The position numbers and the translations under genes were made by a program. From IMG/VR virus record IMGVR_UViG_3300007512_001412, positions 1-64,000 of that record: DNA of 64,000 nt. One strand, given 5' to 3'. Shown here one piece after another: positions 9,594-52,267 of the stretch; positions within the stretch are counted from its first letter, which is position 1, and every line of letters starts with the position of its first letter. The notes beneath the pieces are model-generated. The model ran no database searches and was not told where the DNA came from. It saw nothing but the letters and a program-made list of their open reading frames with translations. This DNA is from a virus.

Positions 9594-12500
9594 ATGGCAA
9601 CCGATGTGATCCTCACCGAAGCGGACGGGCGGAAGTTTCTGACGCGAACGATGGGGCGCAGGATTCACTCCAGCCGCCTCGTCGCAATGGCCGACGAGGT
9701 CGTCGCCTCCCTGCTCATGGACGACATGGTCGCGGAGTTGATGGAGGGGAGCGGTAGCGACCCGGACGAGTGGGAGGGGTGCAACCACCTGATCTTCTGC
9801 GACGTCCTCGCACTCCAGGCGTTCGGCGTCGTGGAGTACGCCATGTACTACGCCCGCGCGTACGGCGCGTACGACGCGATGCGCGAGCTTCGGGAAGCCG
9901 GCGAAGGCGGCATGGCGCTGGCGCTGGAGTTGCAGGCGTGGGGCCTCTACCCGAAGACGGAGTGCATCATCGCGGAAGTCCTGGGCCTCGCCCGGTGCCA
10001 CCGTCCTTCGGTCGGCGCGAGCGGCGGTCCGGGCACCCCCCACGTGTTGGGGTGGGCGGCGGAAGACGCCATGATCCCGGTCGGGACGGACCCCCGCTAC
10101 ACCCCCGTCGTGGAGTACCTGCACCAATCCCTGCGGGACAACGCCCCGCCCCCCGACCCGAAGGGGATGGAGCACGCGGTCCTGTCGTACCCGTACGCGA
10201 AGGTGCGCCCGGTCAATCGGCTGTGGAGCGAAGCCCACTGGCGCGAGGCGATCGATCGCTGCGCGGTGATCAACGCGACGACCACCAGCAAAGCCGACGA
10301 CATGAAGACGATCGGCAACGAATTCAACGACGGGGCGATCAACGTCCTGTTCGCCAACAAGAAGGCGTACGAAGGCGTCGATCTCCAGACCCTCACGTGC
10401 GGACTGCACCACCTCGATCTGCCCTGGGAGCCGGGGACGTACACGCAGCGCAACGGACGCGCGGTGCGCCAGGGGTCGAAGCGCGACGTCGTCCAGATCC
10501 ACGCCTACCTGACGAGCGGGACGGTGGACTACTACCGCTTGGGGCGCATGGAGGGCCGGCGCAACTGGCTGGAATCCGTCATGGACGGCGGGCGCGCGTC
10601 GGCGGCGTCCGGGCTCACCGAAGACGACATGATCTCCATGATCGTCGGCTGCACCCTCCCCGCGCAGCAGAGCGCGGTCCGGGCTCGCCTGGAAGCCCGC
10701 GTGGCGCAGTTGAAGCGACAGCGGGCGCAGCAGAAGGCGGGTCTGATCCAGGCGATCGTCTTCGGGTACATCCAGTTGGGGTCCACGCTGCGCTGCAACT
10801 CCCTCCCCGGAGAGGACGCTTCGCCGTACCTCGTCGGCAAGATCAAGGAGGCGGGGAGGAAGCCCGCCGAGTTGAAGAAGAACGACGTCGCGGCGATCTA
10901 CACGTTCGCGGACGCCTTGATCCGCACGGTCCGCTGCGACGTGGACACGAAGACCGTGGGTCGGTGGACGGCAGACAACCGATCCGTGCAGATCACGAAG
11001 GTCGAGCGCGTCCGGGGCGGGCGGTTCGCGGCGATGGCAAGCAGTCCCGAAGACCCGCCCCTGCTCGACGGGGCGCTCTACCACCACGGCCCCGACCACC
11101 AAGAGTGGTACGGGCGCATGGGGCAGCGCACGGGGCAGGCGGGCGCATGGGACACTCGCGTGGGTCGGCCCATCCTTGTGAAGCAGGACGACGGCACGTA
11201 CGTCCACCTGGGGTGGCGCTGGGAGGGGCGCTGGGAGGAGCGGGCGCTGGTGGAGCAGGTTGACGGCGCGACGGAGATCGAGCCCAACTTCTCCCCCTAC
11301 GCCGACCCCACGGCGGTTCCCCCGACGCTCCACGTGGCCGACTTCGACTCGATCTTCGACCTCATGGAGACATGGGCGCGGATCGGCCCCCAGGCAGCAG
11401 CGGCGAAGGTCAAGGAGTGGTTCGACGTCAGCTACGTGAACCACCGCGCCGTGTTCCCGGGCACGTGGCCCGCCCGGTACGCATGGCTCAACGCCTTCCC
11501 CGACGCCTGGGTCGAGCACCATCGCTGGGATCTGTGGGTGCGGATCGGGGCAGATCCCGACCTCCTCGATTTCGTGTCGGTGCTCCCCTACGTGACCGAC
11601 ACGGACTACCTCCACGACGGGCTCCGAATCATCGACACGGAGGCGTCGATCCCCAACGCCATCCAGCGGAGCATCATCGTGTGGCGCACCCTCGCCACCG
11701 CGTTCTACCGGGTCCGCAAGCTGCGGGGGGCGAAGCAGGGCGGCTTCACCCCGATCCTCAAGGACCCCGACCCCGACACGATCGACTGGAGCCTGTGGCG
11801 CTCCTTGACCATCACGGCAGACGGGGTCACGGTCATGCAGCGGGACGAAGGCTCACCCCCTGTCCCCGTCCTCTACGAACACCCCGGTGACCTCGTCAAG
11901 CTGCATGGCGGATCGTACGGCTCCGGGGCCAGCGAGACGAGGCAGCGGTGGCACAGGGAGATCGTGGTGCAAGTCGAGCCGCCCAAGCCGAAACCGGGCG
12001 AGCGGGCTACCCGACCTCGCGCACGTAAGGTGGATGCGGCGGAGATTCCCAAGCTCCTGTTGCCCTGCGACAGCGACTTCCGCGTGTTCATGCTCGCCCT
12101 CCGGGGCACCGCTGCCAAGCCCTCGACCGCGCCCAAGAAGGCGGCGATCCGGGTGCTCAAGGAGTGGTTCGGGTCCGCGTGGAGTTGGGCGCAGCCCGCG
12201 AGGCTGCTCTCCGGTTCCCACCGGGAGGCGGAGGCGCGCAAGGACAAGGTCAACATCGGCCACTACACGGGCTCCGGGGGGAGCAAGACGCCCATGTGGG
12301 GTGTCGCGCAGATGTACCAACAGGTGCGTTTGCAGGAGCGCGACAAGCGGAGGCCCGCGTGGGGCTTCTCCCACGACGGCTCCATCTACACGATCCGGGG
12401 CACGGCAGGCCCGATCGGGCCGCGCACGCCGCACACGGACTTGCACACCGTGGGAAAGGGCAACGTCGGCTTCGCCGTGACCGACGCCGTCACCGGGGAG

Positions 12501-12668
12501 GACACCGTCGTCGTCCTGTCGCAGACCGGCAAGCTGCCGTTCATCCAAAACCCCGCCCAAGCTGCCGCCGCGCAGCAGCAAGCTGCCGCCGCGCAGGCGC
12601 TCCCCCCGGAGGCGGAGCCCAACGACATGAGCGCGGATCTGGCCCTGGACGACGAGGACGAGAGGTAG
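9594..12668 (+). CDS. Large protein carrying only the helicase-C (RecA2) lobe of a DarB-like SNF2 helicase
   Basis: HLIFCD, FNDGAINVLFAN, EGVDLQ, HHLDLPWEP, TQRNGRAVRQG; no Walker A/B; GGAGG RBS. Confidence 0.85.
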   Translation: MATDVILTEADGRKFLTRTMGRRIHSSRLVAMADEVVASLLMDDMVAELMEGSGSDPDEWEGCNHLIFCDVLALQAFGVVEYAMYYARAYGAYDAMRELREAGEGGMALALELQAWGLYPKTECIIAEVLGLARCHRPSVGASGGPGTPHVLGWAAEDAMIPVGTDPRYTPVVEYLHQSLRDNAPPPDPKGMEHAVLSYPYAKVRPVNRLWSEAHWREAIDRCAVINATTTSKADDMKTIGNEFNDGAINVLFANKKAYEGVDLQTLTCGLHHLDLPWEPGTYTQRNGRAVRQGSKRDVVQIHAYLTSGTVDYYRLGRMEGRRNWLESVMDGGRASAASGLTEDDMISMIVGCTLPAQQSAVRARLEARVAQLKRQRAQQKAGLIQAIVFGYIQLGSTLRCNSLPGEDASPYLVGKIKEAGRKPAELKKNDVAAIYTFADALIRTVRCDVDTKTVGRWTADNRSVQITKVERVRGGRFAAMASSPEDPPLLDGALYHHGPDHQEWYGRMGQRTGQAGAWDTRVGRPILVKQDDGTYVHLGWRWEGRWEERALVEQVDGATEIEPNFSPYADPTAVPPTLHVADFDSIFDLMETWARIGPQAAAAKVKEWFDVSYVNHRAVFPGTWPARYAWLNAFPDAWVEHHRWDLWVRIGADPDLLDFVSVLPYVTDTDYLHDGLRIIDTEASIPNAIQRSIIVWRTLATAFYRVRKLRGAKQGGFTPILKDPDPDTIDWSLWRSLTITADGVTVMQRDEGSPPVPVLYEHPGDLVKLHGGSYGSGASETRQRWHREIVVQVEPPKPKPGERATRPRARKVDAAEIPKLLLPCDSDFRVFMLALRGTAAKPSTAPKKAAIRVLKEWFGSAWSWAQPARLLSGSHREAEARKDKVNIGHYTGSGGSKTPMWGVAQMYQQVRLQERDKRRPAWGFSHDGSIYTIRGTAGPIGPRTPHTDLHTVGKGNVGFAVTDAVTGEDTVVVLSQTGKLPFIQNPAQAAAAQQQAAAAQALPPEAEPNDMSADLALDDEDER

Positions 12669-12672
12669 TCCG

Positions 12673-13296
12673 ATGGCACGCGGGAAGCTCTCCGACGACA
12701 CCCTGGTCTTGGCAGGCGCGGGCCTCCTGGCACTCGTCGTCCTGGCGGGGAGCGGCAAGGCCAAGAAGGGCCGCGCGTGCTCCCCGATCCGGGCTCCCCG
12801 GTCCACGCGCGGGTTCCCGGGTCGGGTGGCGTTCATCCCGGCCCATCAGGACAACTACGGGGGGCAGCGGCCCACCTCCGCGATCAACCGGATCGTGCTC
12901 CACACCACCGAAGGCGACACGGCGCGCGGCACGATCCGCTGGTTCCAGAAGTGTCGGGGGAGTGCGCCCTCGTCGGCGCACTACGTCCTCGACAAGAACG
13001 GCGCGATCACGCAGATGATCCCCGACGACTACGTCGCGTACCACGTGCGGAACGCCAACCGGGACAGCATCGGGATCGAGCACGTGGGCCGCGCCCACCG
13101 GGCCGACACATGGAACCCCCGGAACATGGCGTCGAGCGTGCGGCTGGCCGCGTGGCTGTCCAAGGCGTACAACATCCCGTCGTCCCGCATCGTCACGCAC
13201 GCCTCCCTCGATCCGGCGCGGCGCACCGACCCGGGACCGTACTTCAACGTGGCCGACTACAGGCGGCGCGTCCGGGCACTCACGGGACAGCCGTGA
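12673..13296 (+). CDS. Membrane-anchored N-acetylmuramoyl-L-alanine amidase (AmpD-like)
   Basis: N-terminal TM LVLAGAGLLALVVLAG; IVLHTTEG, SAHYV, AYH, SIGIEH, RTDPG. Confidence 0.9.
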   Translation: MARGKLSDDTLVLAGAGLLALVVLAGSGKAKKGRACSPIRAPRSTRGFPGRVAFIPAHQDNYGGQRPTSAINRIVLHTTEGDTARGTIRWFQKCRGSAPSSAHYVLDKNGAITQMIPDDYVAYHVRNANRDSIGIEHVGRAHRADTWNPRNMASSVRLAAWLSKAYNIPSSRIVTHASLDPARRTDPGPYFNVADYRRRVRALTGQP

Positions 13297-14395: not shown

Positions 14396-14443
14396 GGGCG
14401 GAGTGTACTCCTTGGGGGCCGTGAGGAAAATGCAGATTGCGTG

Positions 14444-14473: not shown

Positions 14474-14504
14474 CGCCGTGCTGACAGAGGAACGGACGGA
14501 GAGA

Positions 14505-15485: not shown

Positions 15486-15518
15486 GCGCGGCACGTTCCC
15501 TGATGGAGAAAATTCGCT

Positions 15519-26363: not shown

Positions 26364-26931
26364 CCGACGCTCTTGCACCTCCGGGCGTACCGGAAGCAGC
26401 ACAAGATCGTGACGACGTACCTCATTCCGCGGACCGTGGGACACCCCCAAGGAGACAACGACATGATCGTGGATCGACAGACCCTCACCCCGGCTCAGGG
26501 CGGCTCCTTGCCGACCCTGCCGACGCACGATTGGCAACCGTGGGCGACCCTCCCGGTCCCGTCGCGGGGCCTGGACGCCGCGAGCAGGGAGTACTCGCTG
26601 CCCCGCCGACGCTGCAAGCGGTGCGGGAAGATCGAGGTCGGGATCGGGGACGGCCCCGCGCCCCCCGGCGACCCCGCCTGCCGGGGCTGATCCTGACAAC
26701 GACTGCGACGGCTACGTCCCCAACTGGACGTTCGCGCCTTGCGCAGCGTGCGGGAAGCTGCGACACATCAACGGGCGGGACCGCTCCGTCACCCTGGTGG
26801 AGCACCTGAGCGACGGGGACAGCGCCTTGGCCGCGTGGGAGAGCGCCGCGCAGGAGGGGCCGGGACGGCACATGACGGACGAGGAATTCATCGCGGCCTT
26901 GAGCCAGTCGGACGTGCGGGAGGGTCCGTGA
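26360..26931 (+). pseudogene. Zn-finger hypothetical gene apparently broken by two +1 frameshifts (or assembly errors)
   Basis: ATG at 26360; coding continues in the 26373 frame, then near 26685 in a third frame (DPDNDCDGY...CAAC...EGP*) whose stop overlaps the recombinase start. Confidence 0.45.
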
Positions 26932-38141: not shown

Positions 38142-38259
38142 CGGTCTGCGCCTCCTACCCGAACGACACGGCGGCTTCACCCCGCGAGCGCAGGATCGCG
38201 GCCCGTTGGACAGGATCACAGGTGGATCCGGCTGTCGATCCCTACTCTTGATCGGCTCT

Positions 38260-39252
38260 CTAGAACAGCGTGGTTTGGCGACTGGACGGCACTCTTGATT
38301 GCAGTTCATGCGGCGTAACAGTCTTGCGCCGAATGACGATGCGAAAATAGGGTGACCTGCCGTTAATACGCAGGTCTTTTCCATCGTCACCCTTGCGGAA
38401 CCTGACGATGTCGAATTGCTCTGGATTGTGCTTGTGCAGGAAAGTGATCGGGACGCCCATCAGGCCAAACCAATCCGACGGAATATCCTTGGTCTTATCC
38501 ACATTGATCCCGTCGAGATTGTCGTAATGCGGGTACTCACTCTCGTTTCCCTCATAGGTCCTGGTCAGTGGAACATTGATGTGTCTCTTCTCGATGTCAA
38601 GGGTGGTCAGCCACAGGCTATTGTTTGTAGCAACTATGCGTTCTCCTTTATCGTTGATCCGCGCCTCAGTGCCATACAATTCATAGTGATCTGGAACAAT
38701 GAACCCGGAAATCGCCCGACCCAACCCTACTCCAAGCCAGATCTTGCCGTCCTGGAGTAGCTTGAAAACGTCCTTGTAGGTGATAGCGTTAACCGTCGCG
38801 ATGATGAGGATATCTTTACGATATCTAGTCATAACTGACACGAACTTTCGCAACAGCGAATAGGGAGGATTTGTGACAACTATATCTGCCTCGTTGAGCA
38901 GTTCGATGCATTCCGCGCTCCGGAAATCTCCATCGCCCCTTAGGGAAGTCAGATCGCCCGCTTCGAAAGTACGACGCTCTTCTTCTAGTCCGGTGTACGA
39001 AAGGTAGCTCCCGCGTCCGCCGGCCCGCATCGCGTATCCAGTGGCAATGAGCCTCTTCAGCCCCAATGACTCAAAGTGGTCATAGAAGTAGCGGACGAAG
39101 TTGCTTTCCAACGCTTGATCTGTGTTGCAGTACACCGTCTTACCACGGAAATGATTGCCGTAGTGCTGCAATTCGCGATCAATATCAACTCGTTGCGTAT
39201 AGAACTCATCGTTCTTGTTCCTTTTCGCTTTGGTTAGCAGAGTGCGATCCAT
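38260..39252 (-). CDS. Adenine-specific DNA methyltransferase, M.EcoRI family
   Basis: AKRNKNDEFYT, GDGDFRSAEC, VTNPPYS, GVPITFL; lower GC. Confidence 0.92.
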   Translation of the reverse strand: MDRTLLTKAKRNKNDEFYTQRVDIDRELQHYGNHFRGKTVYCNTDQALESNFVRYFYDHFESLGLKRLIATGYAMRAGGRGSYLSYTGLEEERRTFEAGDLTSLRGDGDFRSAECIELLNEADIVVTNPPYSLLRKFVSVMTRYRKDILIIATVNAITYKDVFKLLQDGKIWLGVGLGRAISGFIVPDHYELYGTEARINDKGERIVATNNSLWLTTLDIEKRHINVPLTRTYEGNESEYPHYDNLDGINVDKTKDIPSDWFGLMGVPITFLHKHNPEQFDIVRFRKGDDGKDLRINGRSPYFRIVIRRKTVTPHELQSRVPSSRQTTLF

Positions 39253-39389
39253 AGTTCTTACCACTTTCAACCTGCTCTCCGTAGCGCACGACAAGGTGGA
39301 TCGGGCGGCGTGGCGGCTTCACGGGATTGGTCAAGACGCCCGTCCTAGACCATTGGTCCTATCGACACAGACCACTGGGCGGAGGCCGA

Positions 39390-40451
39390 TCAAGGACGTA
39401 TACCCAAGATGAGGACCTCACCAGCAATCCGACCACTGAGGGCGTATTGGTAGCCTTCAACCTCGTTGAGTTGGACACGCCGCCCTCGGATCTCCATGAG
39501 GGAAACCAACTCGGAAATTGGCGGCGAGCCGTCCGCTCGGTAGGAAAGTGCCACGGTCCGCGCCTCATCAAAGTGATCGAGGGTCTTCTCAAAGCACTCA
39601 ACCAACCTCTTCGGCTTGTTCCAGAGGTTCGGGCGTTTGGCTAGAGGCTTGTGCTTTCTGCCCGAATCGAGCAAGCCATCCCAGGACTCATAGAGCAGAA
39701 GCCCATCGAGGAAGTGATAGAATTCGTGGTAGTCAACCGATGTGCCGCGCGCGTTTGTGTACGGCGCGTCGAGATAGACCAAGTCGAAGTCAGTCGGCAA
39801 CTGCCAGACGTCCTCACATAGGCTCTGGCATGGGACCTCACCTTGGAAGATTGCACGGTTGAACTCGTCAGAGAAGACTCTCAGATAGTGGCCGAACGAC
39901 CTATCCCAGGTCACCTTGTTGCCGAAGGACCTCTTCACCTGATTGGTCCGCATGTAGAGGTTCGCACGGTGAAAGAGGTTGTATGGCCGCTTGATGATGC
40001 ACGCTTGAAACAGAACTGACCAAACCACCGCTCGCACGCTGGGGTCCTCAATTTGGGCTATCTCAACGACTGCTCCGTCGAGCCAGCGGTTCTCTTTGCT
40101 CGTGTAGTAGATATCACCGAACGTCGATTCGATGAATCCGCCGCCCTTTGCGTTGGCACCTGCATCAATGACCCTCTCGATCACGTCGCTTGCAACCGTC
40201 GTCGAGTCGTTCTCGATCAGTGCAAGCCCTATCTGTTGGTTGCACCGAAGATAGTCGTTGTAGGTGACCCCCTTGCCCGCCTCCTTGAGCGCGTAGGCGA
40301 CCACGCCCGTGCCCCCAAATGCGTCGAGTGCCGTATCGAACTCAAGGCTCGACAGAGTCTCGCAGATCCACCGAACAAGTTTCTGCTTGCTCCCCTGGTA
40401 GCGGGTTTGGGGAAAATTGCGCGCGGGCAATGGCGACGCTCGGTCAGCCAC
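39390..40451 (-). CDS. DNA adenine methyltransferase (Dam/FokI-like D12 class)
   Basis: RYQGSKQKL, DAFGGTG, YND, VYLDAPY; lower GC. Confidence 0.88.
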   Translation of the reverse strand: MADRASPLPARNFPQTRYQGSKQKLVRWICETLSSLEFDTALDAFGGTGVVAYALKEAGKGVTYNDYLRCNQQIGLALIENDSTTVASDVIERVIDAGANAKGGGFIESTFGDIYYTSKENRWLDGAVVEIAQIEDPSVRAVVWSVLFQACIIKRPYNLFHRANLYMRTNQVKRSFGNKVTWDRSFGHYLRVFSDEFNRAIFQGEVPCQSLCEDVWQLPTDFDLVYLDAPYTNARGTSVDYHEFYHFLDGLLLYESWDGLLDSGRKHKPLAKRPNLWNKPKRLVECFEKTLDHFDEARTVALSYRADGSPPISELVSLMEIRGRRVQLNEVEGYQYALSGRIAGEVLILGIRP

Positions 40452-40677
40452 GTCGGATACCCCACTCGCCCAGGTCGTAGTTGACGGTGAAGCGCACGCC
40501 CCGGAAGACGTACCCCTGTTCACCGAAGTCCTGCCGTGCGGCTTCGATCGGCCCGAGAGCCTCCTCGACGGCGGCGAATAGGGCCGAGCCCACTTCCGCA
40601 GAACCGGCTTTGCCCAGCGCAATGGCGGCGGCGTTCGCCCGGTCTTCGATCTTCCTCGCCGGGGTGCGGACGCGCAT
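40444..40677 (-). CDS. Hypothetical protein
   Basis: Translationally coupled; coding-like. Confidence 0.55.
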   Translation of the reverse strand: MRVRTPARKIEDRANAAAIALGKAGSAEVGSALFAAVEEALGPIEAARQDFGEQGYVFRGVRFTVNYDLGEWGIRRG

Positions 40678-41942: not shown

Positions 41943-42971
41943 CTACGCGCGGGGCTGGCGGCGAGCGCCCTGCTCCGGGCGCATGACGGCGACCTTGGCG
42001 TAGCCGCTGGTCGCGGCCTTGGTGCTGCGGACGGTGGACTCCGCGACCTTGCTGCCGTCCCACTCGGGGACGAGGACGATGACCACGTTCCGCAGGGGCG
42101 TCGTCTTCGGCCACCGCGTCCCGCCGTCCGTGAAGACCACGGTCATCTTCGGCGCGGGCTTGATCTTCGCCGCCGCTTCCAGCCCGACGCCCATGTCGGT
42201 GCCGCCGCCGCCCTTGAGCATCGTGGTGATCTTCGCCTTGTTGAAGACGCGGGTCGCCGCCTGATGCGCCTGGGTGTCCACGGGGATCAGGAACACCTTG
42301 CTGACACCCCGGACCTTGAGCAGCTTCGCGGTTTCGGTCGCCGCGAGGCCCAGGGCACCGGAGCCCATCGAACCGGAGGTGTCCACGACGACGCAGACGT
42401 TGACTTCGGAGCCGCGCATCGACGGGAACACCGGAGCGCCCCGGTAGGACGTCGAGCGGCGACCGGGCTTCTTGTAGGTGTAGTCCTCCTTGCGCGCCGT
42501 CGTCAGCGACGTGTTGACGGCGTTCTTGAGGTACTTCTCCCACCGGACCTGCTTGGGGGACGTGACGTCGTCGGCCCACCGCTTGGAGTTGCCCGCGGCG
42601 GTCCCGCGACCGGAGCCGCCTGCGGAGGGGGCCGGGTCATCGATGTACTGCTCGATCTGCTTCGCTTCGGCGCGGCGGGCGTTCGCCCACTCCTCGTCGG
42701 TGCGCTCGATCGGGAGGTCCCCGAATTCCTTCACCGCCGCCGCCTCCGCCGCGTTGGTCGCTGCGGGGTCGCCGCCTGCACCGGAGCCGCACTCGCCGTG
42801 ACCGACGCCGTCGCCGCCGCTGCCGCCGCTGCCGCCGCCCTCGCCGGGGTCGCCGTTCTCGTCGCCGTTGCCGCCACCGTCGCCGCCGTCGCCGTCGTCG
42901 CCACGGGGGCGAAGGACGACGCTGCTCAGGGGCGTTCCGTTGGGGTCGAGAGTCTGCTGTCCTGCGCTCAT
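41943..42971 (-). CDS. VWA-domain protein (C-terminal part of DUF2201 family)
   Basis: G/D-rich linker, CGSGAGG, YTYKKPGRR, VVDTSGSM (MIDAS), GGGGTDM, VFTDG. Confidence 0.9.
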   Translation of the reverse strand: MSAGQQTLDPNGTPLSSVVLRPRGDDGDGGDGGGNGDENGDPGEGGGSGGSGGDGVGHGECGSGAGGDPAATNAAEAAAVKEFGDLPIERTDEEWANARRAEAKQIEQYIDDPAPSAGGSGRGTAAGNSKRWADDVTSPKQVRWEKYLKNAVNTSLTTARKEDYTYKKPGRRSTSYRGAPVFPSMRGSEVNVCVVVDTSGSMGSGALGLAATETAKLLKVRGVSKVFLIPVDTQAHQAATRVFNKAKITTMLKGGGGTDMGVGLEAAAKIKPAPKMTVVFTDGGTRWPKTTPLRNVVIVLVPEWDGSKVAESTVRSTKAATSGYAKVAVMRPEQGARRQPRA

Positions 42972-43028
42972 GTCGTTTCCTCCTGGCGAGCCCTTCGCCG
43001 GGGCCGGGTGTCGGCCCACCACCAATGT

Positions 43029-43050
43029 AGGGTCGCTACCAGATAGCTAC
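43029..43050. promoter_or_regulatory. TCGCTA-N5-TAGCTA site; includes the inverted copy of 7978..7987
   Basis: AGGGTCGCTACCAGATAGCTAC. Confidence 0.5.
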
Positions 43051-43150
43051 AACCCTTTTCTTTCCACAGGGGCTACGTACAGCGTTTTTTCCAAGCGACC
43101 TCGCACGGCAAGACCTGCAGCAGCGCCAGCAGCAATCCAGGGAAAGTAGC

Positions 43151-44515
43151 TCATCGCGGACGTGGGAGTCGGTGGGACCGAGAGCGCCGCGTCGGATCTC
43201 CCCCAATGTACGACGGGATCTGTCCGTCGAACTGTGCGATGGCACCGTCTACGATCACGGTGCGCCCGTCGCGGTCACGGACCTCCGTCCAGTCGTGGCC
43301 GATGTGATCGACCTCCTCCTCGGCATCCTCGCTCCAGATCGGTGCGGCCAGGACGGCAAACCCGTCGAGGACATGAACAGCGTCCCATCCGTCTCTGCGG
43401 AGCACGCGGGTCCAAGCCGCCGCGTTCGCGTCACAACTGTCTGCGACGCGGCCCTGTTCGATGATGCAGGTATGAACCTCATGCCGATTCGCGGCGACGG
43501 CCTCCCGCAACGCCCGCGATGCTCCAGGGGAGACGTAGACCGGATACGCCTCGACCGACGCACGCAGCGCCGGGTTTCGGTTCTCCATGCGCGCGAAGGG
43601 GGCCTTACGCCGCGAGGACGCCAGGATCGCGTCCACGATGCTGTTCCAGTGCGCCTTGCTCGCGTCCAGCCCTGACAGCCCCGCGATGCCGCCGCCCTTG
43701 AGCAGCTTGTTGTACTTGGTGGTGAACGACTTGGGGAGGACTCCGATGCGAACGCCCCCCTGGACGTAGAGCGGGACCGACTCGGCGGCGAGGTCCAAGT
43801 CGTTGAAGTCGCGTGCCGCCAGGATGCGCTTGCGGATCGCCTCGACCTCGCGTGCGAAGCGATCGAACGGCGGCCCCTCGGCTCGACGCCCGCGCCGCCC
43901 GGACTGACCTCGCCGCGCAAGTCCCAGAGCCGCGCCAGCGGGGATCACCGTGACTTGCTGGTTGCCGTTGGCGTCGGGCTCCGACGCCGTTTCCACGATC
44001 CCGTCCTGCCCCGCGAAGGGACCGTCCACGATCGTCACGGGGTCGCCGGGGCTGTAGACGTTGGGGCCGTCGCCGCCCCCTCCGCCGTCCTCACCCTCGC
44101 CGCCTTCACCGCCGCCGCCTCCGCCGCCCCCGCCGCCGTCGTCATCGTCCAGATCCCCCAGGTCGTCGCCGCTGCCCACGATGGGCTGGCCTGCCAGGGG
44201 CGGGATCGGGGCAGCGGGACCGCCGCCACCGGAGCCCTGCGGGGTCGCCCACGGGGGCACACCGCCCGCCTGGGGCGCGCGGGACACCGTGTTGATGGGG
44301 GACGAGCCGTCGCTGCCCGTGCGGAGCAGCGTCTTGAACGACTGGCCCTTGAGGGGGCCGTCCGTCCAGCGGATCGAGAGGAACGCCGGTAGGACGCGCG
44401 TGACGACGCCTTCGCTGCCGTACCACTGGTCGTCGCCGGGGTAGAAGCCGTTGCCGATGTACTCGACCCGGTCGCCCTGGTTCACCGGGACGGGGCCGTG
44501 GATCATGTTGCTCAT
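43151..44515 (-). CDS. KOW-repeat, Gly-rich protein with C-terminal transglutaminase/papain-like domain
   Basis: QGDRVEY and PGDPVTIVDGPFAGQDG KOW motifs; DSC...HDWTEV...IVDG.IAQF triad. Confidence 0.7.
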   Translation of the reverse strand: MSNMIHGPVPVNQGDRVEYIGNGFYPGDDQWYGSEGVVTRVLPAFLSIRWTDGPLKGQSFKTLLRTGSDGSSPINTVSRAPQAGGVPPWATPQGSGGGGPAAPIPPLAGQPIVGSGDDLGDLDDDDGGGGGGGGGGEGGEGEDGGGGGDGPNVYSPGDPVTIVDGPFAGQDGIVETASEPDANGNQQVTVIPAGAALGLARRGQSGRRGRRAEGPPFDRFAREVEAIRKRILAARDFNDLDLAAESVPLYVQGGVRIGVLPKSFTTKYNKLLKGGGIAGLSGLDASKAHWNSIVDAILASSRRKAPFARMENRNPALRASVEAYPVYVSPGASRALREAVAANRHEVHTCIIEQGRVADSCDANAAAWTRVLRRDGWDAVHVLDGFAVLAAPIWSEDAEEEVDHIGHDWTEVRDRDGRTVIVDGAIAQFDGQIPSYIGGDPTRRSRSHRLPRPR

Positions 44516-45216
44516 GGCGTGCTCCGGTGTGCCGGATCGACCGGCGCGTACTCGACGTTCTGCTTGCCGTTGGCGTCGGGCGGGGTCGCGGAGATCACGA
44601 CGACCTCCCGGCCCTTGTACTTGCCGCGCTTCGGCTTGGCCCGGTCACCGACCGCCCACACCTTCTTGGGCGGCGGGGGCTTCTTGCCCTTCTTCTTCTC
44701 GACCGCGTAGTACAGGTCCGCGCTGTACCCTTCGGGAGCGCCGATCTGTCCGGGCTGGAGCGCCCACCGCTGGATCTTGAATTCCTCCCACACCCCGTCG
44801 AGCAGCGCGTAGAGGCGCGTCAGGTCGTCGTTGATCTCCCGATCCCCGGCGCGGTTCCACAGGACTTGGTCGTAGCCGTTCGCTTCCTGGCGCGCGGCGT
44901 GGTTGTACTTGATGTGGCCGTGCTCATGGAGCAAGTCGGCGGCGAGCGCGAGCAGTCGCCGCTTGTCCCGTCCTTCCTCCGTTTCCCCTCCGGGGTCGGT
45001 GGCGGGATCGGGGTCGGGCCACTTGGCGAACGAGGGGCGGTAGAACAGGTGCCCCTTCGTGTTCACCGCCATCGTCTTGACCTTGCCGCTGACGTCTTCC
45101 ACGAACGTCAGCTTGTAGAGGATATCCGCCGTCCAGGGCATCGCGGTCAGCGCGAGTCCCCGCGCCATCTGCATCAGCCCGTGGGCTTCTTCATCCTTGT
45201 AGTACTTGCGTGCCAT
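44512..45216 (-). CDS. DUF2201 N-terminal putative metallopeptidase with C-terminal KOW motif
   Basis: TMAVN..LFY, LLHEHGH, WNRAGDREIND; VGDRAKPKRGKYKG. Confidence 0.85.
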   Translation of the reverse strand: MARKYYKDEEAHGLMQMARGLALTAMPWTADILYKLTFVEDVSGKVKTMAVNTKGHLFYRPSFAKWPDPDPATDPGGETEEGRDKRRLLALAADLLHEHGHIKYNHAARQEANGYDQVLWNRAGDREINDDLTRLYALLDGVWEEFKIQRWALQPGQIGAPEGYSADLYYAVEKKKGKKPPPPKKVWAVGDRAKPKRGKYKGREVVVISATPPDANGKQNVEYAPVDPAHRSTP

Positions 45217-45518
45217 CAGGTGCGCTCCAGCCCCTCGACCTCGTACGGGTCGGGGCGTCGGATGGTGGGGTTGTGCGCCGTGATCTCCCCGGAGGGGTCC
45301 AGCGTCAACGTCGCCTCCACGATCCACAAGCCGGTGTCGGGGAACGACAGGACGTCCCCGGTGTCGCCGTTGAGGATCCACCCCTCGTCCGTGTTGGACG
45401 CGAGGGCGAGGTCTTGGACTTCGGTGTCGAGGGCCGCGAGCAACACCCCGTAGACCACCGTGGTTTCCCCGGAGGGATCGGGAACCCCGTAGGTTCCTCC
45501 GTAGAGCAGCTTCGCCAT
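45216..45518 (-). CDS. Hypothetical acidic protein
   Basis: AGGAGG RBS; coupled to the peptidase gene. Confidence 0.65.
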   Translation of the reverse strand: MAKLLYGGTYGVPDPSGETTVVYGVLLAALDTEVQDLALASNTDEGWILNGDTGDVLSFPDTGLWIVEATLTLDPSGEITAHNPTIRRPDPYEVEGLERT

Positions 45519-45541
45519 GTCGGCCTCCTTCCACGTGAAGA

Positions 45542-45559
45542 TAGCTACAAAATAGCTAC
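45542..45559. promoter_or_regulatory. TAGCTA-N5-TAGCTA operator-like site
   Basis: TAGCTACAAAATAGCTAC upstream of the DUF2201 cluster. Confidence 0.6.
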
Positions 45560-45595: not shown

Positions 45596-48500
45596 CTACC
45601 CGACCCCCATTCCGCCGCTCGCTACCGACTCCATCTGGAGTGTCGCCGCCAAAGCCTCCGCGCTGGTGAGCGCGGCGGCGTCCACCCCGATCCGGCTCAG
45701 GGCCGCTGTGCTCAACGCGCCGCCCGCCTCGTCCGCACCGAAGGCGAGCAGGGAGGCGAGCGCCACCCGGGTCAGAGGACCGGGGTGTCCGTCGAGGTAC
45801 GCCGCCACAGCCGGGTACGCATCTTCGGAGTCACCCGCCGCGTCGTCGTTCGCGGCTTCCCGCAACTCGTCCTCGCGGAGCAGGGGCACGATCTCATGGA
45901 GGCCCCCCGCACCGAAGGTAGCCGACAGCGTGCCGGGAGCCTCGCTGCTCCTGCTCCGCTGGACCCACTGGCGCGACTGCACCAGCGCGGTGTGCGCGAG
46001 CGAGGCGTTCAGGATGGCTTCGGGGCGCGTCCACCCCACGGGCTGTGCCCCCGTGGACTCGACCTCGTCGTTCCATGCGTCCCACAACTCTTTGTGCAGA
46101 TCCCGCACCGCCGACGCGACCACGTAGCCGCGCCACGTGGCGACGTAGATCGCGGCCTCGCCCTTGCCGGGGCGGAACGCCAGCACGATCTCCAGAAGCT
46201 CCCGGGGATGCGCCGTGAAGTACGGATCGGTGAGGATCACAGGGGAGGGGGTGCCCCGGGGGTAACGCTTGCCGTCCGGGGCGACCGGAGCCGGCACCAG
46301 GGGCAGATCCTTGGGCTCCCCGCTTATGTCCTTCGTCGGAATGTGCCGGATGCGGAGCATGTCCCGGCGTCCGTCGCCGTGCTTCGGCCACGCCACGTTG
46401 AAGGGCTGGAGGGTCTGTTCGCCCTGCACGGTGGTCGGGGTGATCGCGGCGAGCACGCCCCCGTTGCCGATGGGGAGCGCGGTCTGGAGCGCGTCCACGT
46501 ACGTGTCGATGGACGACTTCTTCTTCTTGCCGTCGTCGGCAGCGGTGTAGCTCGCTTCGGACGACGAGGCGGCAAACTCCAGGCCCACGTGCGCCGCCGT
46601 GCGGCCCATCTTCTGCATGACGCCCATGAGGTTGCCGATGTTCTCCGCCGCGCCCGTCGCCTTCGCCGTCAGCGCCGTCTGGTACGCCACGTAGCGACGG
46701 TACTGCTCCGGGGACATGCCGATCTCGACGCGGCGCGTCGGGGGTGCGATCGGCACCTTGCCGCCCGTGAACACGGCCCACTTGTTCCGTTCGGGATCGG
46801 TCGCGTCCAGGGTGGGCGCGTGCTGCGTGACCAAGCTGCCGTCGTCCAGGCGACCCTCGACGGCGTAGTCACCCACGGCGTCCCCGTCGAAGATCCGCAG
46901 CCGATCCTGCGCGCGCACGTGCTCCGTGGAGCCGTCCACGGGGATGAAGTGCCCGCGCACCGTGCCGTCCTGCCCGGTCATCGTGGTAAACACGGATCGG
47001 GAGCCGTTCCCGATCATCCTCCCGCGCAGGGCTTCGGCGTCGTCCACCGTCTTGCGGTTGGCGTAGCGCCGGAACAGGGCCAGGAATTCGTCTTGGTTGC
47101 GGAACGGAGGGACGACCGCCAGCCGCTCCTGCGGCTCCGACGAGGGCTTCGCCACGATCTTCGGCTCGATCTCCACGTACCGGCTGATGAATTCCTCCGG
47201 GGAGTTGATCCCGACCGGAGTGAACACCGACGAGTCCCGCTTCCCGGGCTCTCCGATGTACTGGAACAGGTTGTAGAATTCGATCGGGGACGTCGTCGCC
47301 GGGGTCGCGGTGAGCAGGACCACCCGCCCGTTGTTCCGCCGCACCGCCGCCGCCCGGAATTCCAACTGCCACGCGCTCTTGGAGTTGCCCGTGGTGTACA
47401 GGTACTCGACCTTGCCCTGGCCCAACGAGCCGCGCTTCTGCGGTTCGTACAGCGACTTGAAGCCCTTGTGCGCCTCGTCCACGACGAGGAAATCCACGCC
47501 GGTCGCGTCCCACGTGATCAACTCGCCTGCGGACGTCAGCGCCGGGGGCTTCGGGACGGCGGAGAGCCGTCGTCCCAGCGCCGCAGCCGCCTTCTGCGAC
47601 ATGCGCTTGCCGCTGATGCTCTCATAGTCCTGCACCGGATCGGACACCTCGACGGTGTACGGCCCCCATGATCCGTGGGCGTTGAGCCACTGAGCGACGT
47701 CCTGCGCGGCTTCGACGTTCGTCAGGGGGGACACGGCTCCGGTCTGGAGGTCGCGCGCGGCGTACCCGACGCCGTAGTAGGCCCCGTTGCGCTGCGCGCC
47801 CTTCGGCGCTTCCTCGCCGCTGCGCTTGAACGGCGGCGGCACCGGGTAGCCGTCCGGGTACTGGTTGCGCCGGCTGGGGAGGAACACCACGCCCGCGTAG
47901 ACGTCGTCGGGGAGCACGAACCGATGCGCGTAGGGGGTCACCCCGAAGCCCTGTGTCGGAGCCGGCAGGCCACTGTTGGCGAAGCCGGGGACGTGCCTCG
48001 GGTTGACAGTCTCCCCGTTCACGTCCACGACCCACGCCTTCTCCGGGGCGGCGAGGAGCCGTTCGTACAGGGCCGCGACGGCAACGTCATGGGCCTCGCG
48101 CTTCGGCTGCAAGCGATCCGCGATCCACTCCATGACCGCCTGCACGCGGAAGGGGGCACGGGGATCGTTGATCTCGTCTTCCAGGGTCGCCACGTACTCC
48201 GCCAGCGACATGCCCTTGGGGACGTCGCCAATGTCCAGGCCCGCTGCGGGCTGGATCCGGGTGCCTACGGGGATCGCCTGCGGGGCGACTCCCTGGACCG
48301 GAGGGCCGGTCGCCGCGCCCTTCTCCCACGGGATGTACTCCGTCCCCCGGGGGTCACGGAGGATGATCAGGTACGGCCCGCTGCCGTCGCTGTCCATCTT
48401 GATGACGCGCGCGATCTCCTGGCCGTGCGGCGCGTCGATGAAGACGTACTTGGGATTTGCCGGGGAGATTCCGCTCGCTGTGAGGATGGAGGAATCCCCG

Positions 48501-51500
48501 ATGTACAGCTTCTCGGACACGAACCCTTCGGTCTGCGCCGTGTAGGGCGGGTTCTCGTTCCGCAGCCCACCGGGTCGCGTGGGGGGGTTCTTCGGGTTCA
48601 GCGGGTGGAGCGCGACACGGTGGAGCGCATCCAAATCCAACGCGGATCGCGCGTTCGCCTTGGCGATCGACTCGATCCACTGGTTGGGATCATACGGATC
48701 GGGGTAGCGCAGGACGACCCAGGTCTTCGTGTTGCCGCTCCGTCGCTGCGCCGATCTCAAGTCGGGGCGGCCGGTTGCTTCAAGTCCCCGGGGCTGGTGC
48801 CCCGACGCGACGTACTTCACGGCGAAGCCGCTCTCTCTCACCCCGGCGAACGTGGTGGGAGAGCCAAGGGGCTGCGTGGTGACGGTTTCCTTCGCCAGCA
48901 GCCCCAGGAGCGCCTTCGACGCCCGAATGAGGCGTTCCCGCAACTCGTAGCCTTCGGTGTAGCCCACCGACGTCGTCACGGCGCGGCCGCTCGCGGACTT
49001 GCGGCCCGTGTCGATGTTGATCGACTTGAACAGGCTCTCCTCGATGGACTGGAGGATCGCGGGGGTAGCGAGCACGTGCTCCCGCACGGACGCATCGTCC
49101 AGGGGGAGCGCGTCGAGGCGGGACGCGGGGACGAACACCGCGTCGAAGCGCCCGGAGCGGAATTCCGCCCACTTGTCCGCGACCTCCGTGGGGGTTTCAT
49201 CCTCCGCCTTGAGTGGAGGCGGGGCCTGCGTCTTGCGGATCGGGGTGCCGTCGTCCTTGGTCCCGACCGTGTAGACGCCGCCGTGCAGCGCGATGAATTC
49301 GCCTTCCCGGCGCGACATTTCCGTCGCCACGCGGCGCACCTCGATGGCGTAGAGCGTGGGGTCAGCCTTGAGGTCCGCGATCGTCGCCTTGAATTCCACG
49401 CGGGAGACAGCCTTCCTGGCAGGCTTCCCCTTGCTCACGACGGTGACCGGCTTGACCTGGGATCGGACCCCCTTGTTCCCCGCCGCGACCGCCGCTTCGG
49501 TGCGCCGGAAGGCTTCGTGGAACAACTCCTGCGCCAACCGCACGGAGCGGAGCCGCAGCGGGTGTCGCTTCGCGCGCTTGTTCGGGATCTTGGTCGGGGG
49601 TCGGTACTTCTTGCCGATGATCTCGACCCGGTAGTCGGGAAACTGCTTGAGCAGATCCGCCGTCCACTTCGGGATCAGCGTGTTGGGGACGACGAACACC
49701 GGGCGCTTGGCAAGGCCCCGCTGCTTGGCGTACGCCATCGCCAGGATCGCCACGTTGGTCTTGCCGACGCCGACGCCCATCGCCAGGAGCCCGCCGCCTT
49801 CCTCGACCAGACGGCGCGCGCCCGCCGACTGGTAGGGGTACGGGGCCATCTTGTTCGACGTGCCGTCCGGGCCGACGCCTTCATAGTCGTCCTTGGTCAC
49901 CGGCCCCGCCCGGACCAGCCCCTCCGCGACGTTGTCCGTGTCGTACTCGGGCAGGACGTAGCTGCGCCAGCGCACGTTGTACGCATGGACGACCTGACGT
50001 CGGTGCTCGACGCCCTGGTCGGAGTCGAGGAAGGAGAGCAGGGAGGTGTTGAACCCGGAGGCGTACGCTTCCCGCTGCGCGTCCTTCCGCTTCGCCGTGA
50101 TCATGGACACGGCAGCACCGATCCGCCGTGGCAGATCCGTGGGGGGGATCGAGGGGAACATCGCGCTCAGGTTGGCCCAATCCTGCTGCGTCTTGTTCGG
50201 CCTACAGATATCCGCGAGGTCGCCCAACGTCCACGTGTGGCCCGCCTGGACCGCCACGTTCCCCAGGAGAGCCTGGAGGGTCGCTTCTCCTTCGGGCCAC
50301 AACTCCGCGCGCCATCCCGGCCCCTTCATGCGCGAGAGGACCGGGACCGACGTCAGTGCGTTGGGGCTGAAACAGGAAACGTCGCTGTTGAGGTAGCCCA
50401 GGAGGTAGCGGGTCCGGTGGCTGATCGAGTTCTGGTAGCCGCTCTCCCACGCGGACTTCGACGCGAGGGCTGCGTACGGGATCAACGCGAACACGTACAC
50501 CCGATCCCCGGGCTGGTAGGCCGCGTCCGGGTTCAACTCCCGAAGCTCGCGCAGCGGCATCCGGTAGGAGGCCGCGATGCTCTCCGGGGTGTCCCCCTGC
50601 TCGACGGTGTAGGGGCGCTCCCACGCCAGGGACGTAGCGAACATGCCGCGCCGCAGGCGCACGCGCACGGGCGCGTAGTCCCTGCCCGTGTTCTCCGCGT
50701 CCCTGATCTCCCCGAAGTCCCTGATCCGCTTGTACGTCCACACGTCCACGTAGCCCTTGCCCGTCCTGTACAGGTCTTCTTCGGTCAGAACCGGGGCGGC
50801 GTCGGGGAGCCAGTAGTCGAGGCGCTTGTTGTGCGGCGGGGACAGGGCTTCCCCGGTGGGGACGTCTTCGGGGACGTCCTCCGTGTCGAAGGTGTAGTCG
50901 GTCCCCAAGGTGGTCTTCGACCAGTCGCCGGGGTGCGGGATCTGCACGTACTGGTTGATCCAGGCGTTGAGCGTTTCCACCGGGAGGTACGTGTCGCGGA
51001 CGTCGAGCGCCGGGGCCAGATCCTCCGCCCAATCGGCGTCCCGCGTGTACCCGGCAAACTCGTCGTGCTGCACCATCCCCGCCGTGTAGAGGAACGCGGG
51101 GAGCGCGGGGATCGGCGGGGGCTCACCCGCTGCCAGCACCGTGTCCAGCCGCGTCTTCTTGTTCGTCAGGAGCCGGGAGTAGTAGTCCCGCGTGGGCATC
51201 ATGCGCGAGAGCACGGGGGAGCCGTGGAGATCGGCGTCGAAGCGCCAGCCGTGGTCGTGGAACAGGGCGTTCAGCAGGCTGGTTCCCAGCGTGTCCCGAT
51301 CCACGTCCGGGTCGGACGAGGCCGACACCCACTCGTCCACGAACGCATCGATGTACAGGACCCCTTCGCCCGCCCGGTACATCCAGAGGGCGGAGGCTTC
51401 CAGATCCTCTGCGACGTCCCACGGCCCCGGGTACTCCGTCAACGCCGCAGGCATCGTGCGGAATTCGGGGATCACGTGGCCGTTCGTGTCGAAGACGTGC

Positions 51501-52267
51501 AGGAAGGTGTCCAACTCCGTCGCCGCGCCCGGAGACAAGGCGTTCGGCCCCGCGTGGGGGTCGCCGTGGACCGTGTGCCAGCCCATGATCGCGTCGGACA
51601 ATTCGTACCAGTACGCGCGCGCTTCCTCGCGCCCACTCGCGTCGTCGCGCTGGCGGGCGGCGGCGTACCCCAGGAGGCGCGCGCCGATGACCAGGGCTTC
51701 CTCCTCCGGGTTCTTGGTACGGATGCCTTCTGCGGGTCGGACCTTCGGCTTCGACGGCTTCGACGCCCGCGACGGCTTCGCTCCCGGCTTGATCGGCTTG
51801 TGCCCGATCGCCTCGATCGCCGTGGCGATTGCGCCCCACACCGGCTTGGCGTACGCCACGTACCGGCGCAGCTTGTCGGCGTCCATCTCCATCAGGTCTT
51901 CGGCAACCGGACCCGTTCGCAGGAACAGCGCGTCGTAGCAGACCTTGATTTCTTCGGGGGACACCCACCGCTGGCACTGTTCGCCCAGGACGTTCGGGAG
52001 CAGCGTCTTGACGAATTCCTCGTTGGCGAGCGCAGACGAGTAAAGCTCCTGCGCCTCCGCCCGCCGCATCGTGACGACGATCTGGTTGAGCTTGGGGTCG
52101 GCGTACATCGAGAGGCGCAGCGGCCCCGGCTGGACCTCCGTCCCCACCGCAGCGGCGAACATGGCCGGATCATCGTGCCCCGGGGGGAGGTGCCTTCCGA
52201 CGACCGCGACCGCCCGGTTGACGACTTCGCGGACCCACGTGTCGCCCTGCTGGTTCCCGTTGCTCAC
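45596..52267 (-). CDS. Giant (about 2220 aa) DarB-like protein: LysM plus SNF2 ATPase (RecA1) lobe, lacking helicase-C
   Basis: GTGA-coupled start; LysM YTVEQGDT..IA..LRELNP..PGDRV; PYQ, GVGVGKT, VVP, VDEAH, LLTATP, EFYNLFQY; no motifs V/VI. Confidence 0.88.
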   Translation of the reverse strand: MSNGNQQGDTWVREVVNRAVAVVGRHLPPGHDDPAMFAAAVGTEVQPGPLRLSMYADPKLNQIVVTMRRAEAQELYSSALANEEFVKTLLPNVLGEQCQRWVSPEEIKVCYDALFLRTGPVAEDLMEMDADKLRRYVAYAKPVWGAIATAIEAIGHKPIKPGAKPSRASKPSKPKVRPAEGIRTKNPEEEALVIGARLLGYAAARQRDDASGREEARAYWYELSDAIMGWHTVHGDPHAGPNALSPGAATELDTFLHVFDTNGHVIPEFRTMPAALTEYPGPWDVAEDLEASALWMYRAGEGVLYIDAFVDEWVSASSDPDVDRDTLGTSLLNALFHDHGWRFDADLHGSPVLSRMMPTRDYYSRLLTNKKTRLDTVLAAGEPPPIPALPAFLYTAGMVQHDEFAGYTRDADWAEDLAPALDVRDTYLPVETLNAWINQYVQIPHPGDWSKTTLGTDYTFDTEDVPEDVPTGEALSPPHNKRLDYWLPDAAPVLTEEDLYRTGKGYVDVWTYKRIRDFGEIRDAENTGRDYAPVRVRLRRGMFATSLAWERPYTVEQGDTPESIAASYRMPLRELRELNPDAAYQPGDRVYVFALIPYAALASKSAWESGYQNSISHRTRYLLGYLNSDVSCFSPNALTSVPVLSRMKGPGWRAELWPEGEATLQALLGNVAVQAGHTWTLGDLADICRPNKTQQDWANLSAMFPSIPPTDLPRRIGAAVSMITAKRKDAQREAYASGFNTSLLSFLDSDQGVEHRRQVVHAYNVRWRSYVLPEYDTDNVAEGLVRAGPVTKDDYEGVGPDGTSNKMAPYPYQSAGARRLVEEGGGLLAMGVGVGKTNVAILAMAYAKQRGLAKRPVFVVPNTLIPKWTADLLKQFPDYRVEIIGKKYRPPTKIPNKRAKRHPLRLRSVRLAQELFHEAFRRTEAAVAAGNKGVRSQVKPVTVVSKGKPARKAVSRVEFKATIADLKADPTLYAIEVRRVATEMSRREGEFIALHGGVYTVGTKDDGTPIRKTQAPPPLKAEDETPTEVADKWAEFRSGRFDAVFVPASRLDALPLDDASVREHVLATPAILQSIEESLFKSINIDTGRKSASGRAVTTSVGYTEGYELRERLIRASKALLGLLAKETVTTQPLGSPTTFAGVRESGFAVKYVASGHQPRGLEATGRPDLRSAQRRSGNTKTWVVLRYPDPYDPNQWIESIAKANARSALDLDALHRVALHPLNPKNPPTRPGGLRNENPPYTAQTEGFVSEKLYIGDSSILTASGISPANPKYVFIDAPHGQEIARVIKMDSDGSGPYLIILRDPRGTEYIPWEKGAATGPPVQGVAPQAIPVGTRIQPAAGLDIGDVPKGMSLAEYVATLEDEINDPRAPFRVQAVMEWIADRLQPKREAHDVAVAALYERLLAAPEKAWVVDVNGETVNPRHVPGFANSGLPAPTQGFGVTPYAHRFVLPDDVYAGVVFLPSRRNQYPDGYPVPPPFKRSGEEAPKGAQRNGAYYGVGYAARDLQTGAVSPLTNVEAAQDVAQWLNAHGSWGPYTVEVSDPVQDYESISGKRMSQKAAAALGRRLSAVPKPPALTSAGELITWDATGVDFLVVDEAHKGFKSLYEPQKRGSLGQGKVEYLYTTGNSKSAWQLEFRAAAVRRNNGRVVLLTATPATTSPIEFYNLFQYIGEPGKRDSSVFTPVGINSPEEFISRYVEIEPKIVAKPSSEPQERLAVVPPFRNQDEFLALFRRYANRKTVDDAEALRGRMIGNGSRSVFTTMTGQDGTVRGHFIPVDGSTEHVRAQDRLRIFDGDAVGDYAVEGRLDDGSLVTQHAPTLDATDPERNKWAVFTGGKVPIAPPTRRVEIGMSPEQYRRYVAYQTALTAKATGAAENIGNLMGVMQKMGRTAAHVGLEFAASSSEASYTAADDGKKKKSSIDTYVDALQTALPIGNGGVLAAITPTTVQGEQTLQPFNVAWPKHGDGRRDMLRIRHIPTKDISGEPKDLPLVPAPVAPDGKRYPRGTPSPVILTDPYFTAHPRELLEIVLAFRPGKGEAAIYVATWRGYVVASAVRDLHKELWDAWNDEVESTGAQPVGWTRPEAILNASLAHTALVQSRQWVQRSRSSEAPGTLSATFGAGGLHEIVPLLREDELREAANDDAAGDSEDAYPAVAAYLDGHPGPLTRVALASLLAFGADEAGGALSTAALSRIGVDAAALTSAEALAATLQMESVASGGMGVG

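Follow-up and report, generated by a model that had tools for sequence, protein, structure and literature searches.

A conserved fission of a DarB-like Snf2 motor in a virus, its halves probably parted by one inversion and reassembled in trans

Motors of the Snf2 type have been studied as single chains, the two lobes of which close on ATP. In the virus record analysed here the two lobes of one such superfamily 2 (SF2) motor are encoded by two open reading frames (ORFs) lying 33 kb apart on opposite strands, in convergent orientation, and this raises the question of how the motor came to be divided and whether its halves still work as one enzyme. The window, by which we mean the whole stretch of DNA analysed, comprises the first 64 kb of IMGVR_UViG_3300007512_001412, a linear IMG/VR virus record of 77,325 bp with a GC content of ~69% and a CheckV completeness of 48%. 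An earlier note, made from the sequence of the window alone, had described the two genes as a DarB-like helicase split at the boundary between its RecA-like lobes and had proposed that the halves assemble in trans. Here we report that the fission is genuine and conserved, that the two halves share a common origin and that fused relatives carry them collinearly in one chain; we consider it probable that a single inversion separated the halves and that they reassemble in trans into a presumably active ATPase.

Pfam and motif scans upheld the two-gene arrangement, with one ORF carrying lobe 1 only (the N half) and the other lobe 2 only (the C half). The features of the two genes are:

45596..52267, minus strand: N-half gene, 2223 amino acids (aa), SF2/SNF2 lobe 1 in a giant protein (N-only family P0050-P0054)
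50531..50611, minus strand: LysM-like segment, residues 553-579 of the N half (Pfam LysM 23.0 bits, cut-off 20.9)
49553..49861, minus strand: motifs Q, I (GVGVGKT, 832-838) and Ia (VVPN), residues 803-905 of the N half
47501..49552, minus strand: ~680-aa insertion in lobe 1 between motifs Ia and II, residues 906-1589
47285..47500, minus strand: motif II (VVDEAH, 1595-1600) and motif III (LTATPATTSP, 1652-1661) of the N half
46568..46759, minus strand: SNF2 'block C'-like strand and helix (VPIAPPTRRVEIGMSPEQYRRY, 1838-1859) and HPxL-like block (AAHVGL, 1892-1896)
45599..46567, minus strand: weakly conserved tail of the N half, residues 1901-2223, equivalent to the expanded loop of the fused giants
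9594..12668, plus strand: C-half gene, 1024 aa, SF2/SNF2 lobe 2 (C-only family P0004-P0009, P0080, P0081)
9657..9803, plus strand: helix before motif IV (RIHSSRL..) and motif IV strand (CNHLIFCD), residues 22-70 of the C half
10365..10517, plus strand: motif V (YEGVDLQ), HHLDLPW, motif VI (QRNGRAVRQG) and the next strand (297-308) of the C half

In the C half, Helicase_C at residues 232-294 is the sole Pfam domain (32.8 bits, cut-off 23.5), and it is accompanied by the motifs CNHLIFCD (63-70), YEGVDLQ (259-265), HHLDLPW (272-278) and QRNGRAVRQG (285-294); Pfam and a regular-expression scan found neither a P-loop nor a DEAH box in this protein. The N half contains ResIII at residues 807-895 (30.4 bits, cut-off 22.5) and, in the same kind of scan, DEAH at residue 1597, with no Helicase_C detected by Pfam and no motif VI by the regular expressions. 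Its SNF2-rel_dom score (21.8 bits) lies under the cut-off of 24.9, which is passed by the relatives P0052 (27.2) and L039 (34.9) and narrowly missed by L041 (24.5). The SNF2 block 'V.M...Q...Y' is found at residues 1847-1859 of the N half (MSPEQYRRY at 1851-1859), and MSPEQYRRY-type and HPxL-like blocks are present in the consensus of 45 fused and split relatives. An [LM]S..Q...Y block followed by HPxL before motif IV is what we take to be Snf2-defining. Furthermore, the N-family profile matches motifs Q-Ia of SMARCAD1; a phmmer search of N-half residues 1560-1905 against the Protein Data Bank (PDB) returned only spurious matches to designed Kelch repeats. The N-half frame is open from 52648, and homologues start at the GTG at 52267, which overlaps the stop of the gene upstream and opens an N-terminus (MS..DPWV) conserved among them. 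Both ORFs are intact, with a third-position GC content of 0.87-0.91 that is comparable to that of other genes here.

Structure prediction agrees with the assignment of the C half. An AlphaFold2 model of its residues 1-400 (predicted local distance difference test, pLDDT, 82) contains a five-stranded RecA2 domain followed by long C-terminal helices, residues 1-21 being of low confidence (pLDDT <50). The best Foldseek matches of this segment are mostly lobe 2 of SNF2 proteins (CSB, ISWI, SWR1, RapA, Rad26, Rad54, INO80), with weak E-values of 5e-4 to 1e-2. A model of the whole C half built from a 7-row alignment was unusable (pLDDT 36), and a search of the ESM Atlas found nothing for residues 400-1024. 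Stretches of both chains that do not belong to the motor, ~620 aa in the C half and well over 1000 aa in the N half, have no known function. Directly after the C half, at 12673-13296 (+), we found a gene for an N-acetylmuramoyl-L-alanine amidase (Amidase_2, 104 bits); this neighbour and the LysM-like segment of the N half both point to the cell wall.

That the two ORFs are halves of one protein is seen from their placement on common profiles. On phrog_11801 the N half spans positions 1032-1193 and the C half 1384-1541, and on phrog_1685 the corresponding positions are 1018-1189 and 1454-1601; a profile-profile comparison of the N and C families found nothing in common (probability 0.2%). The only other SF2 protein in the 77,325-bp record is one complete helicase at ~6.0-7.8 kb (ResIII and Helicase_C), so that no second partner for either half was found in the record. 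As for the type of motor, the profile named 'DarB-like antirestriction' (phrog_10089) matches both the N half (E 1e-10) and the C half (3e-16), and tblastn aligns the C half with phage P1 darB (35% over 113 aa, E 7e-15). Methylase domains were not detected by Pfam in the N half, nor in L041 and L039, two of the fused giants; Eco57I/N6_Mtase domains occur in fused proteins that are more distantly related (P0055, P0056). The DarB label of the earlier note thus holds for the helicase module and not for the methyltransferase domain, and as no methylase domain was found we speak of a DarB-like module rather than file the protein as a DarB orthologue.

The split is not a peculiarity of this record. 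A sequence search for split relatives covered 5.8 billion proteins, and a profile search with the C family covered 1.84 billion cluster representatives and matched 5931 proteins in all. The C-only family comprises 7 clusters plus P0080 and P0081, the two added by the profile search; its members P0004-P0009 are 1037-1316 aa long with Helicase_C alone, and throughout the family the N-terminus is conserved and the residues of motifs V and VI are invariant. The N-only family comprises 5 clusters with conserved N-termini and invariant GVGVGKT, VVPN, VVDEAH and LTATP; P0051-P0054 are 2372-2970 aa long and without Helicase_C, which Pfam did not find in the N half of the window, P0051 or P0052 and which is not listed among the precomputed domains of P0053 and P0054. 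The split families are only 26-35% identical overall, yet their ATP-cleft residues are invariant. The identical N protein is recorded from three contigs. In the C-family member P0009 we noted an insertion of ~147 aa between HHLDLPWEPATF and TQRNGRAVRQG (alignment A1, columns ~340-486), which begins with Cys, holds TPNH and ends with ..TGN before Thr; it is mini-intein-like and lies beside motif VI, and Pfam finds no intein or other domain in it.

The fused form is the common one. The next-best profile matches after the C-only clusters are fused giants of 2400-3570 aa, so that the split form is rare, and scans of IMG/VR and of Genome Taxonomy Database (GTDB) genomes with the C family found fused relatives only. 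We compared 180 related loci from viral, metagenome and genome collections; in 164 a single ORF encodes both lobes, and in only two of them, L023 and L024, is there a true C-only gene that begins at a start of its own. Their proteins are 40-45% identical to those of the window, an AAA_5 gene lies directly upstream of the C-only gene in both, and the gene order downstream matches that of the window. As this arrangement is shared at such identity, the rearrangement is old and has been retained. The N half was not found in the ~9-10 kb flanks of L023 or in the 10-kb contig of L024. The nearest fused relatives are mostly from Myxococcota genomes. Among ordinary fused relatives, L108 (Myxococcota metagenome-assembled contig JAKLKF010000097.1, ~9593-9678) has its lobes in adjacent overlapping ORFs, probably through a frameshift or sequencing error and not a second fission.

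Alignment to full-length homologues, which the earlier note had proposed as a check, gave a consistent picture: in the fused giant L041 (3271 aa) residues 161-1938 align with the N family and 2133-2561 with the C family, and L039 (2680 aa) and L035 align in the same collinear way, N then C. Separate trees were built for the motif II-III region (N side) and the motif V-VI region (C side) using a quick support method. The split N proteins form one clade (support 91), as do the split C proteins (support 80), and each nests in a strongly supported clade (99 and 100, respectively) together with the same fused proteins, L125, L035, L039 and L041. Furthermore, the branching orders mirror each other, with P0050/P0001, P0051/P0004, P0052/P0005 and (P0053,P0054)/(P0006,P0008,P0009) in corresponding places. 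Both halves thus belong to the same helicase clade, contrary to the finding of different clades by which the earlier note would have seen its reading refuted, and the mirrored trees beside the same four fused proteins fit one old fission. The usual description of SF2 motors, both lobes in one polypeptide, does not apply here: throughout the split clade the lobes lie in two ORFs.

Where the chain was cut could be located by measuring the loop at the break with small hidden Markov models (HMMs) of its two flanking blocks. In ordinary fused relatives the HPxL-like block and the helix preceding motif IV are nearly contiguous; in the fused giants 95-313 aa lie between them, and in L041 this loop is acidic and of low complexity. 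It is at the position of the expanded loop that the N proteins of the split family end and the C proteins begin, the latter with ~21 residues ahead of the S-x-R-L helix in front of motif IV. Since the N half keeps the Snf2 block and the HPxL-like block, the cut is in an expansion-tolerant loop slightly inside lobe 2, and the boundary between RecA1 and RecA2 that had been proposed as the break point is not exact. The insertion within lobe 1 is also present in the fused relative L041, where it is shorter (~440 aa) than in the N half.

A prediction of the complex supports binding between the two proteins and offers a way in which they could be held together. We predicted the complex from three chains (N 770-905, N 1560-1905 and C 1-400), and the score was 0.71 compared with 0.00 for the best of three controls, a comparison to be read with the caveat that our own alignments and the three-chain design differ from those of the tool's calibration, in which 58 of 80 solved complexes attained this mark, as did 2 of 110 mismatched pairs. 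Three runs shared at least 69% of contacts, with a partner pLDDT of at least 73. In the model the tightest contacts are those of N-half residues 1839-1847, running parallel to C-half residues 299-306 in the strand after motif VI; that is, the 'block C'-like region of the N half is predicted to pair with the C-half strand 297-308. Further contacts are predicted between N-half residues 1884-1900, around the HPxL-like block, and the long helices at C-half residues 322-377, so both N-half elements are predicted to dock on the C half. The predicted cleft is canonical, with motif VI facing motifs I and II. The model suggests strand complementation as the glue between the halves, although a pass in such a test may reflect mere likeness, as SNF2 structures have already been solved.

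The gene neighbourhood indicates how the two parts could have come to lie so far apart. The features concerned are:

8088..9584, plus strand: MoxR-type AAA_5 ATPase gene directly upstream of the C-half gene (adjacency kept in L023 and L024)
9583..9598, plus strand: arm 1 of a 16-nt inverted repeat (AGGAGGCCGACATGGC), ribosome-binding site and start codon of the C-half gene
41943..45518, minus strand: gene group that follows the N half immediately and, taken together, normally partners the AAA_5 ATPase
45518-45216, minus strand: 100-aa ORF, first after the N half
45216-44512, minus strand: DUF2201_N peptidase part (N-terminal portion)
44515-43151, minus strand: middle ORF of the DUF2201 group
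43025-41943, minus strand: C-terminal part of DUF2201_N and VWA domain
45514..45529, minus strand: arm 2 of the 16-nt inverted repeat, ribosome-binding site and start codon of the 100-aa ORF
54764..56986, minus strand: upstream neighbour gene of the N half, 740 aa (homologues upstream of ordinary fused DarB-like genes)

Pantoea phage G19 has a DUF2201 gene directly after an ATPase gene that matches the AAA_5 protein of the window. Undoing an inversion of ~9584-45528 would restore both this AAA_5-DUF2201 operon and the adjacency of the N half to the C half, and a single inversion would therefore explain why the halves are convergent and why each lies beside one half of the MoxR/VWA pair. An alternative with breakpoints at 7978 and 43038 was rejected, as it would not adjoin the N and C halves and would part the VWA gene from the remainder of DUF2201. 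Residues 116-305 of the 54764-56986 protein, for which Pfam has no family, have homologues in separate ORFs of 500-900 aa at at least 11 loci, and these ORFs sit 2-4 kb upstream of ordinary fused DarB-like genes, suggesting that the N half has kept the ancestral neighbourhood.

Several observations were made along the way in the same region. The DUF2201 metallopeptidase/VWA protein is divided among three ORFs in succession (41943-45216, minus strand), and the codon-position GC of 54764-56986 is odd (0.58/0.56/0.91). The sequence RTAGCTAY occurs 8 times compared with 0.36 expected (45541-45559, 3318-3336, 23907, 28851, 36141 and 43043), and a tandem pair in the 77-nt spacer that runs from the N-half stop codon to the start codon of the following gene is a candidate operator. 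A low-GC island at 38000-40000 (0.546 versus ~0.69), which may be a recent acquisition, adjoins a gene for a D12-class N6-adenine DNA methyltransferase at 39390-40622 (-). No PHROG match to terminase, portal, capsid or tail genes was obtained for any gene tested up to position 77,325 of the record, the sole PHROG match beyond 64 kb being a primase, and around the N half PHROGs recognised no structural genes.

Taken together, these findings are best explained by an ancestral giant single-chain DarB-like SNF2 ATPase that was cut into two genes. The cut fell where the HPxL-like block and the helix ahead of motif IV are separated by the expanded loop, which is probably disordered. A single inversion of ~36 kb would then have moved the C part away, with one breakpoint at the fission point and the other between the MoxR AAA_5 gene and its DUF2201/VWA partner. 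Once translated, the two proteins would most likely come together again as one ATPase, the N chain giving lobe 1 plus the strand and helices that complete and brace lobe 2, and the C chain giving motifs IV-VI including the arginine fingers. That the halves cooperate is suggested by the invariant residues of the ATP cleft and by the fact that the arginine fingers of lobe 2 have no known use without an SF2 lobe 1. Assembly in trans, as the earlier note had it, is the reading that best fits the conserved motifs, the mirrored phylogeny, the collinear fused relatives and the predicted complex. A number of points weigh against this account. The support for each split clade is moderate (91 and 80, from a quick method), the N half of the window itself falls short of the Pfam SNF2 cut-off, and at a completeness of 48% a further lobe could sit in the unseen part of the genome. 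N-only and C-only genes have been seen together in this record only, the contigs of P0004-P0009 and P0051-P0054 lying outside the comparison. At the equivalent junction L023 and L024 lack the 16-nt repeat, the window contains 13 exact inverted pairs of that length, and two ribosome-binding regions may resemble each other here by chance.

The most serious competitor, which we nevertheless regard as rather unlikely, is that the halves no longer cooperate and that each has a separate role or another partner, the C half acting for example with the AAA_5 ATPase or the 6.0-7.8 kb helicase and the N half being a structural or virion protein. Such a divorce would be in keeping with the adjacency of AAA_5 and C half in three viruses, with the long regions outside the motor (~620 aa in the C half, >1000 aa in the N half) and with the location of the two genes in different co-directional gene blocks. 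However, it leaves unexplained why the cleft residues of both halves are invariant at 26-35% overall identity, what the arginine fingers would do without lobe 1, and why the trees mirror each other and the complex prediction passed, and the inversion accounts for the AAA_5 adjacency without any functional link. Far less probable is a programmed inversion, in which the 36-kb segment would flip via the 16-nt repeats, catalysed by its internal serine recombinase, setting the C-half gene by turns behind the N-half gene or the AAA_5 gene. An exact 16-nt inverted repeat does lie at both junctions, as the sole pair of GGAGGCCGACATG sites in the window (0.25 expected), and the segment contains a serine recombinase (Resolvase domain, PHROG 'DNA invertase') at 28887-29507 (+) and a tyrosine integrase at 26739-28010 (+). 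Against this, the repeat is short, lacks the dyad symmetry of hix/gix and is missing in L023 and L024, and to our knowledge 36 kb far exceeds the segments turned by invertases. Moreover, a flip would still leave two ORFs, as the stop codon, the 77-nt spacer and the start codon remain. A scan of IMG/VR did not find the flipped junction, nor did it find the present junction used as a control.

We give equally little credence to decay, that is, to a rearrangement that broke the gene and left two drifting remnants. The rearrangement did also part the MoxR gene from DUF2201, whose protein is in turn fragmented; but the ORFs are intact over 2223 and 1024 codons with a third-position GC of 0.87-0.91, and both pieces are full-length in several lineages, with invariant motifs at 26-35% identity. 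An assembly artefact, in which a chimeric or wrongly inverted contig makes the split, has in its favour that the contig derives from a metagenome and is extremely improbable here, given that on two independent contigs, L023 and L024, the C-only gene has a matching start region and likewise lies downstream of the AAA_5 gene, that the first residues are conserved in both families and the N proteins end without lobe 2, and that the identical N protein is present on three contigs; the fission is thus real rather than an error. Almost nothing speaks for a split intein rejoining the halves by protein trans-splicing, apart from the intein-like insertion elsewhere in lobe 2 of P0009, which hints that inteins may visit the family. 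The C-termini of the N family vary in length and sequence with no conserved end residue in the alignment, the C family has only ~21 residues before the helicase sequence and no HN-C/S/T junction, and Pfam finds no intein domain, all in line with the statement of the earlier note that no intein motifs are visible.

If the halves do reassemble, the fission could have a use, and the control switch suggested in the earlier note is a pure conjecture of this kind. The N half, with its LysM segment, belongs to a long run of co-directional genes that have no functions assigned and may be late or virion genes; the C half lies within the replication block, beside genes for DNA polymerase, a helicase, an amidase and an AAA+ ATPase. 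It is conceivable, though doubtful, that the halves form a 'two-key' motor, being made or delivered at different times so that the ATPase would fire only when they meet; an N half delivered with the genome and switched on by a newly made C half would be one speculative example. If true, this would be a natural, timed split-enzyme switch in a virus. More generally, we believe that a conserved natural two-chain Snf2 motor would show where the fold tolerates cutting and would offer a ready-made split-ATPase pair for mechanistic or tool work. The relatives document an evolutionary series from a short loop to an expanded loop and to fission, followed by the putative separation by inversion, and they raise the question whether giant polyvalent DarB-like proteins are sometimes built from parts of different expression modules.

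Limited full-text literature searches found no report of a naturally two-chain Snf2 motor, and known systems resemble the present one in part. Cyanobacteria encode the two halves of their split DnaE at distant sites on opposite strands, and a split intein joins them; DnaE is thus covalently rejoined by trans-splicing, whereas no intein features were found here. Split genes of Nanoarchaeota include an SF2 'large helicase-related protein' (NEQ003/NEQ409) and reverse gyrase (PMC3655853, Table 1), and as in our case the protein is whole elsewhere, is encoded by two distant genes and is presumed to be reassembled post-translationally (PMC3655853); they differ in belonging to a cellular organism under genome reduction and to another helicase family, the position of the break not being given in the table. 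According to a preprint (10.1101/2023.08.09.551721), the INO80 family has a large 'major insertion region', situated between SNF2 blocks C and K, and the 'split' ATPases of INO80 and SWR1 likewise tolerate a long insertion between the lobe-1 side and motif IV, although they are one polypeptide, whereas here, in sequence register only, the expansion and the break follow the HPxL-like block. Phage P1 DarB and the methylase-SNF2 'dyad' are polyvalent proteins (Iyer et al. 2017, PMC5512222), and P1 DarB is likewise a giant mobile-element protein with a motor of the SNF2 clade; the helical inserts after motif III and after the first lobe-2 strand also fit the published description of these families (PMC5512222). 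In contrast to the two-chain motor described here, P1 DarB is a single chain with an N-terminal N6-adenine methylase. Finally, the fused giants (L041, L039, L035 and L125; also P0082-P0098) have in common with the split pair the large lobe-1 insertion, the expanded loop and the collinear order of the two parts, and differ from it in being encoded by a single ORF.

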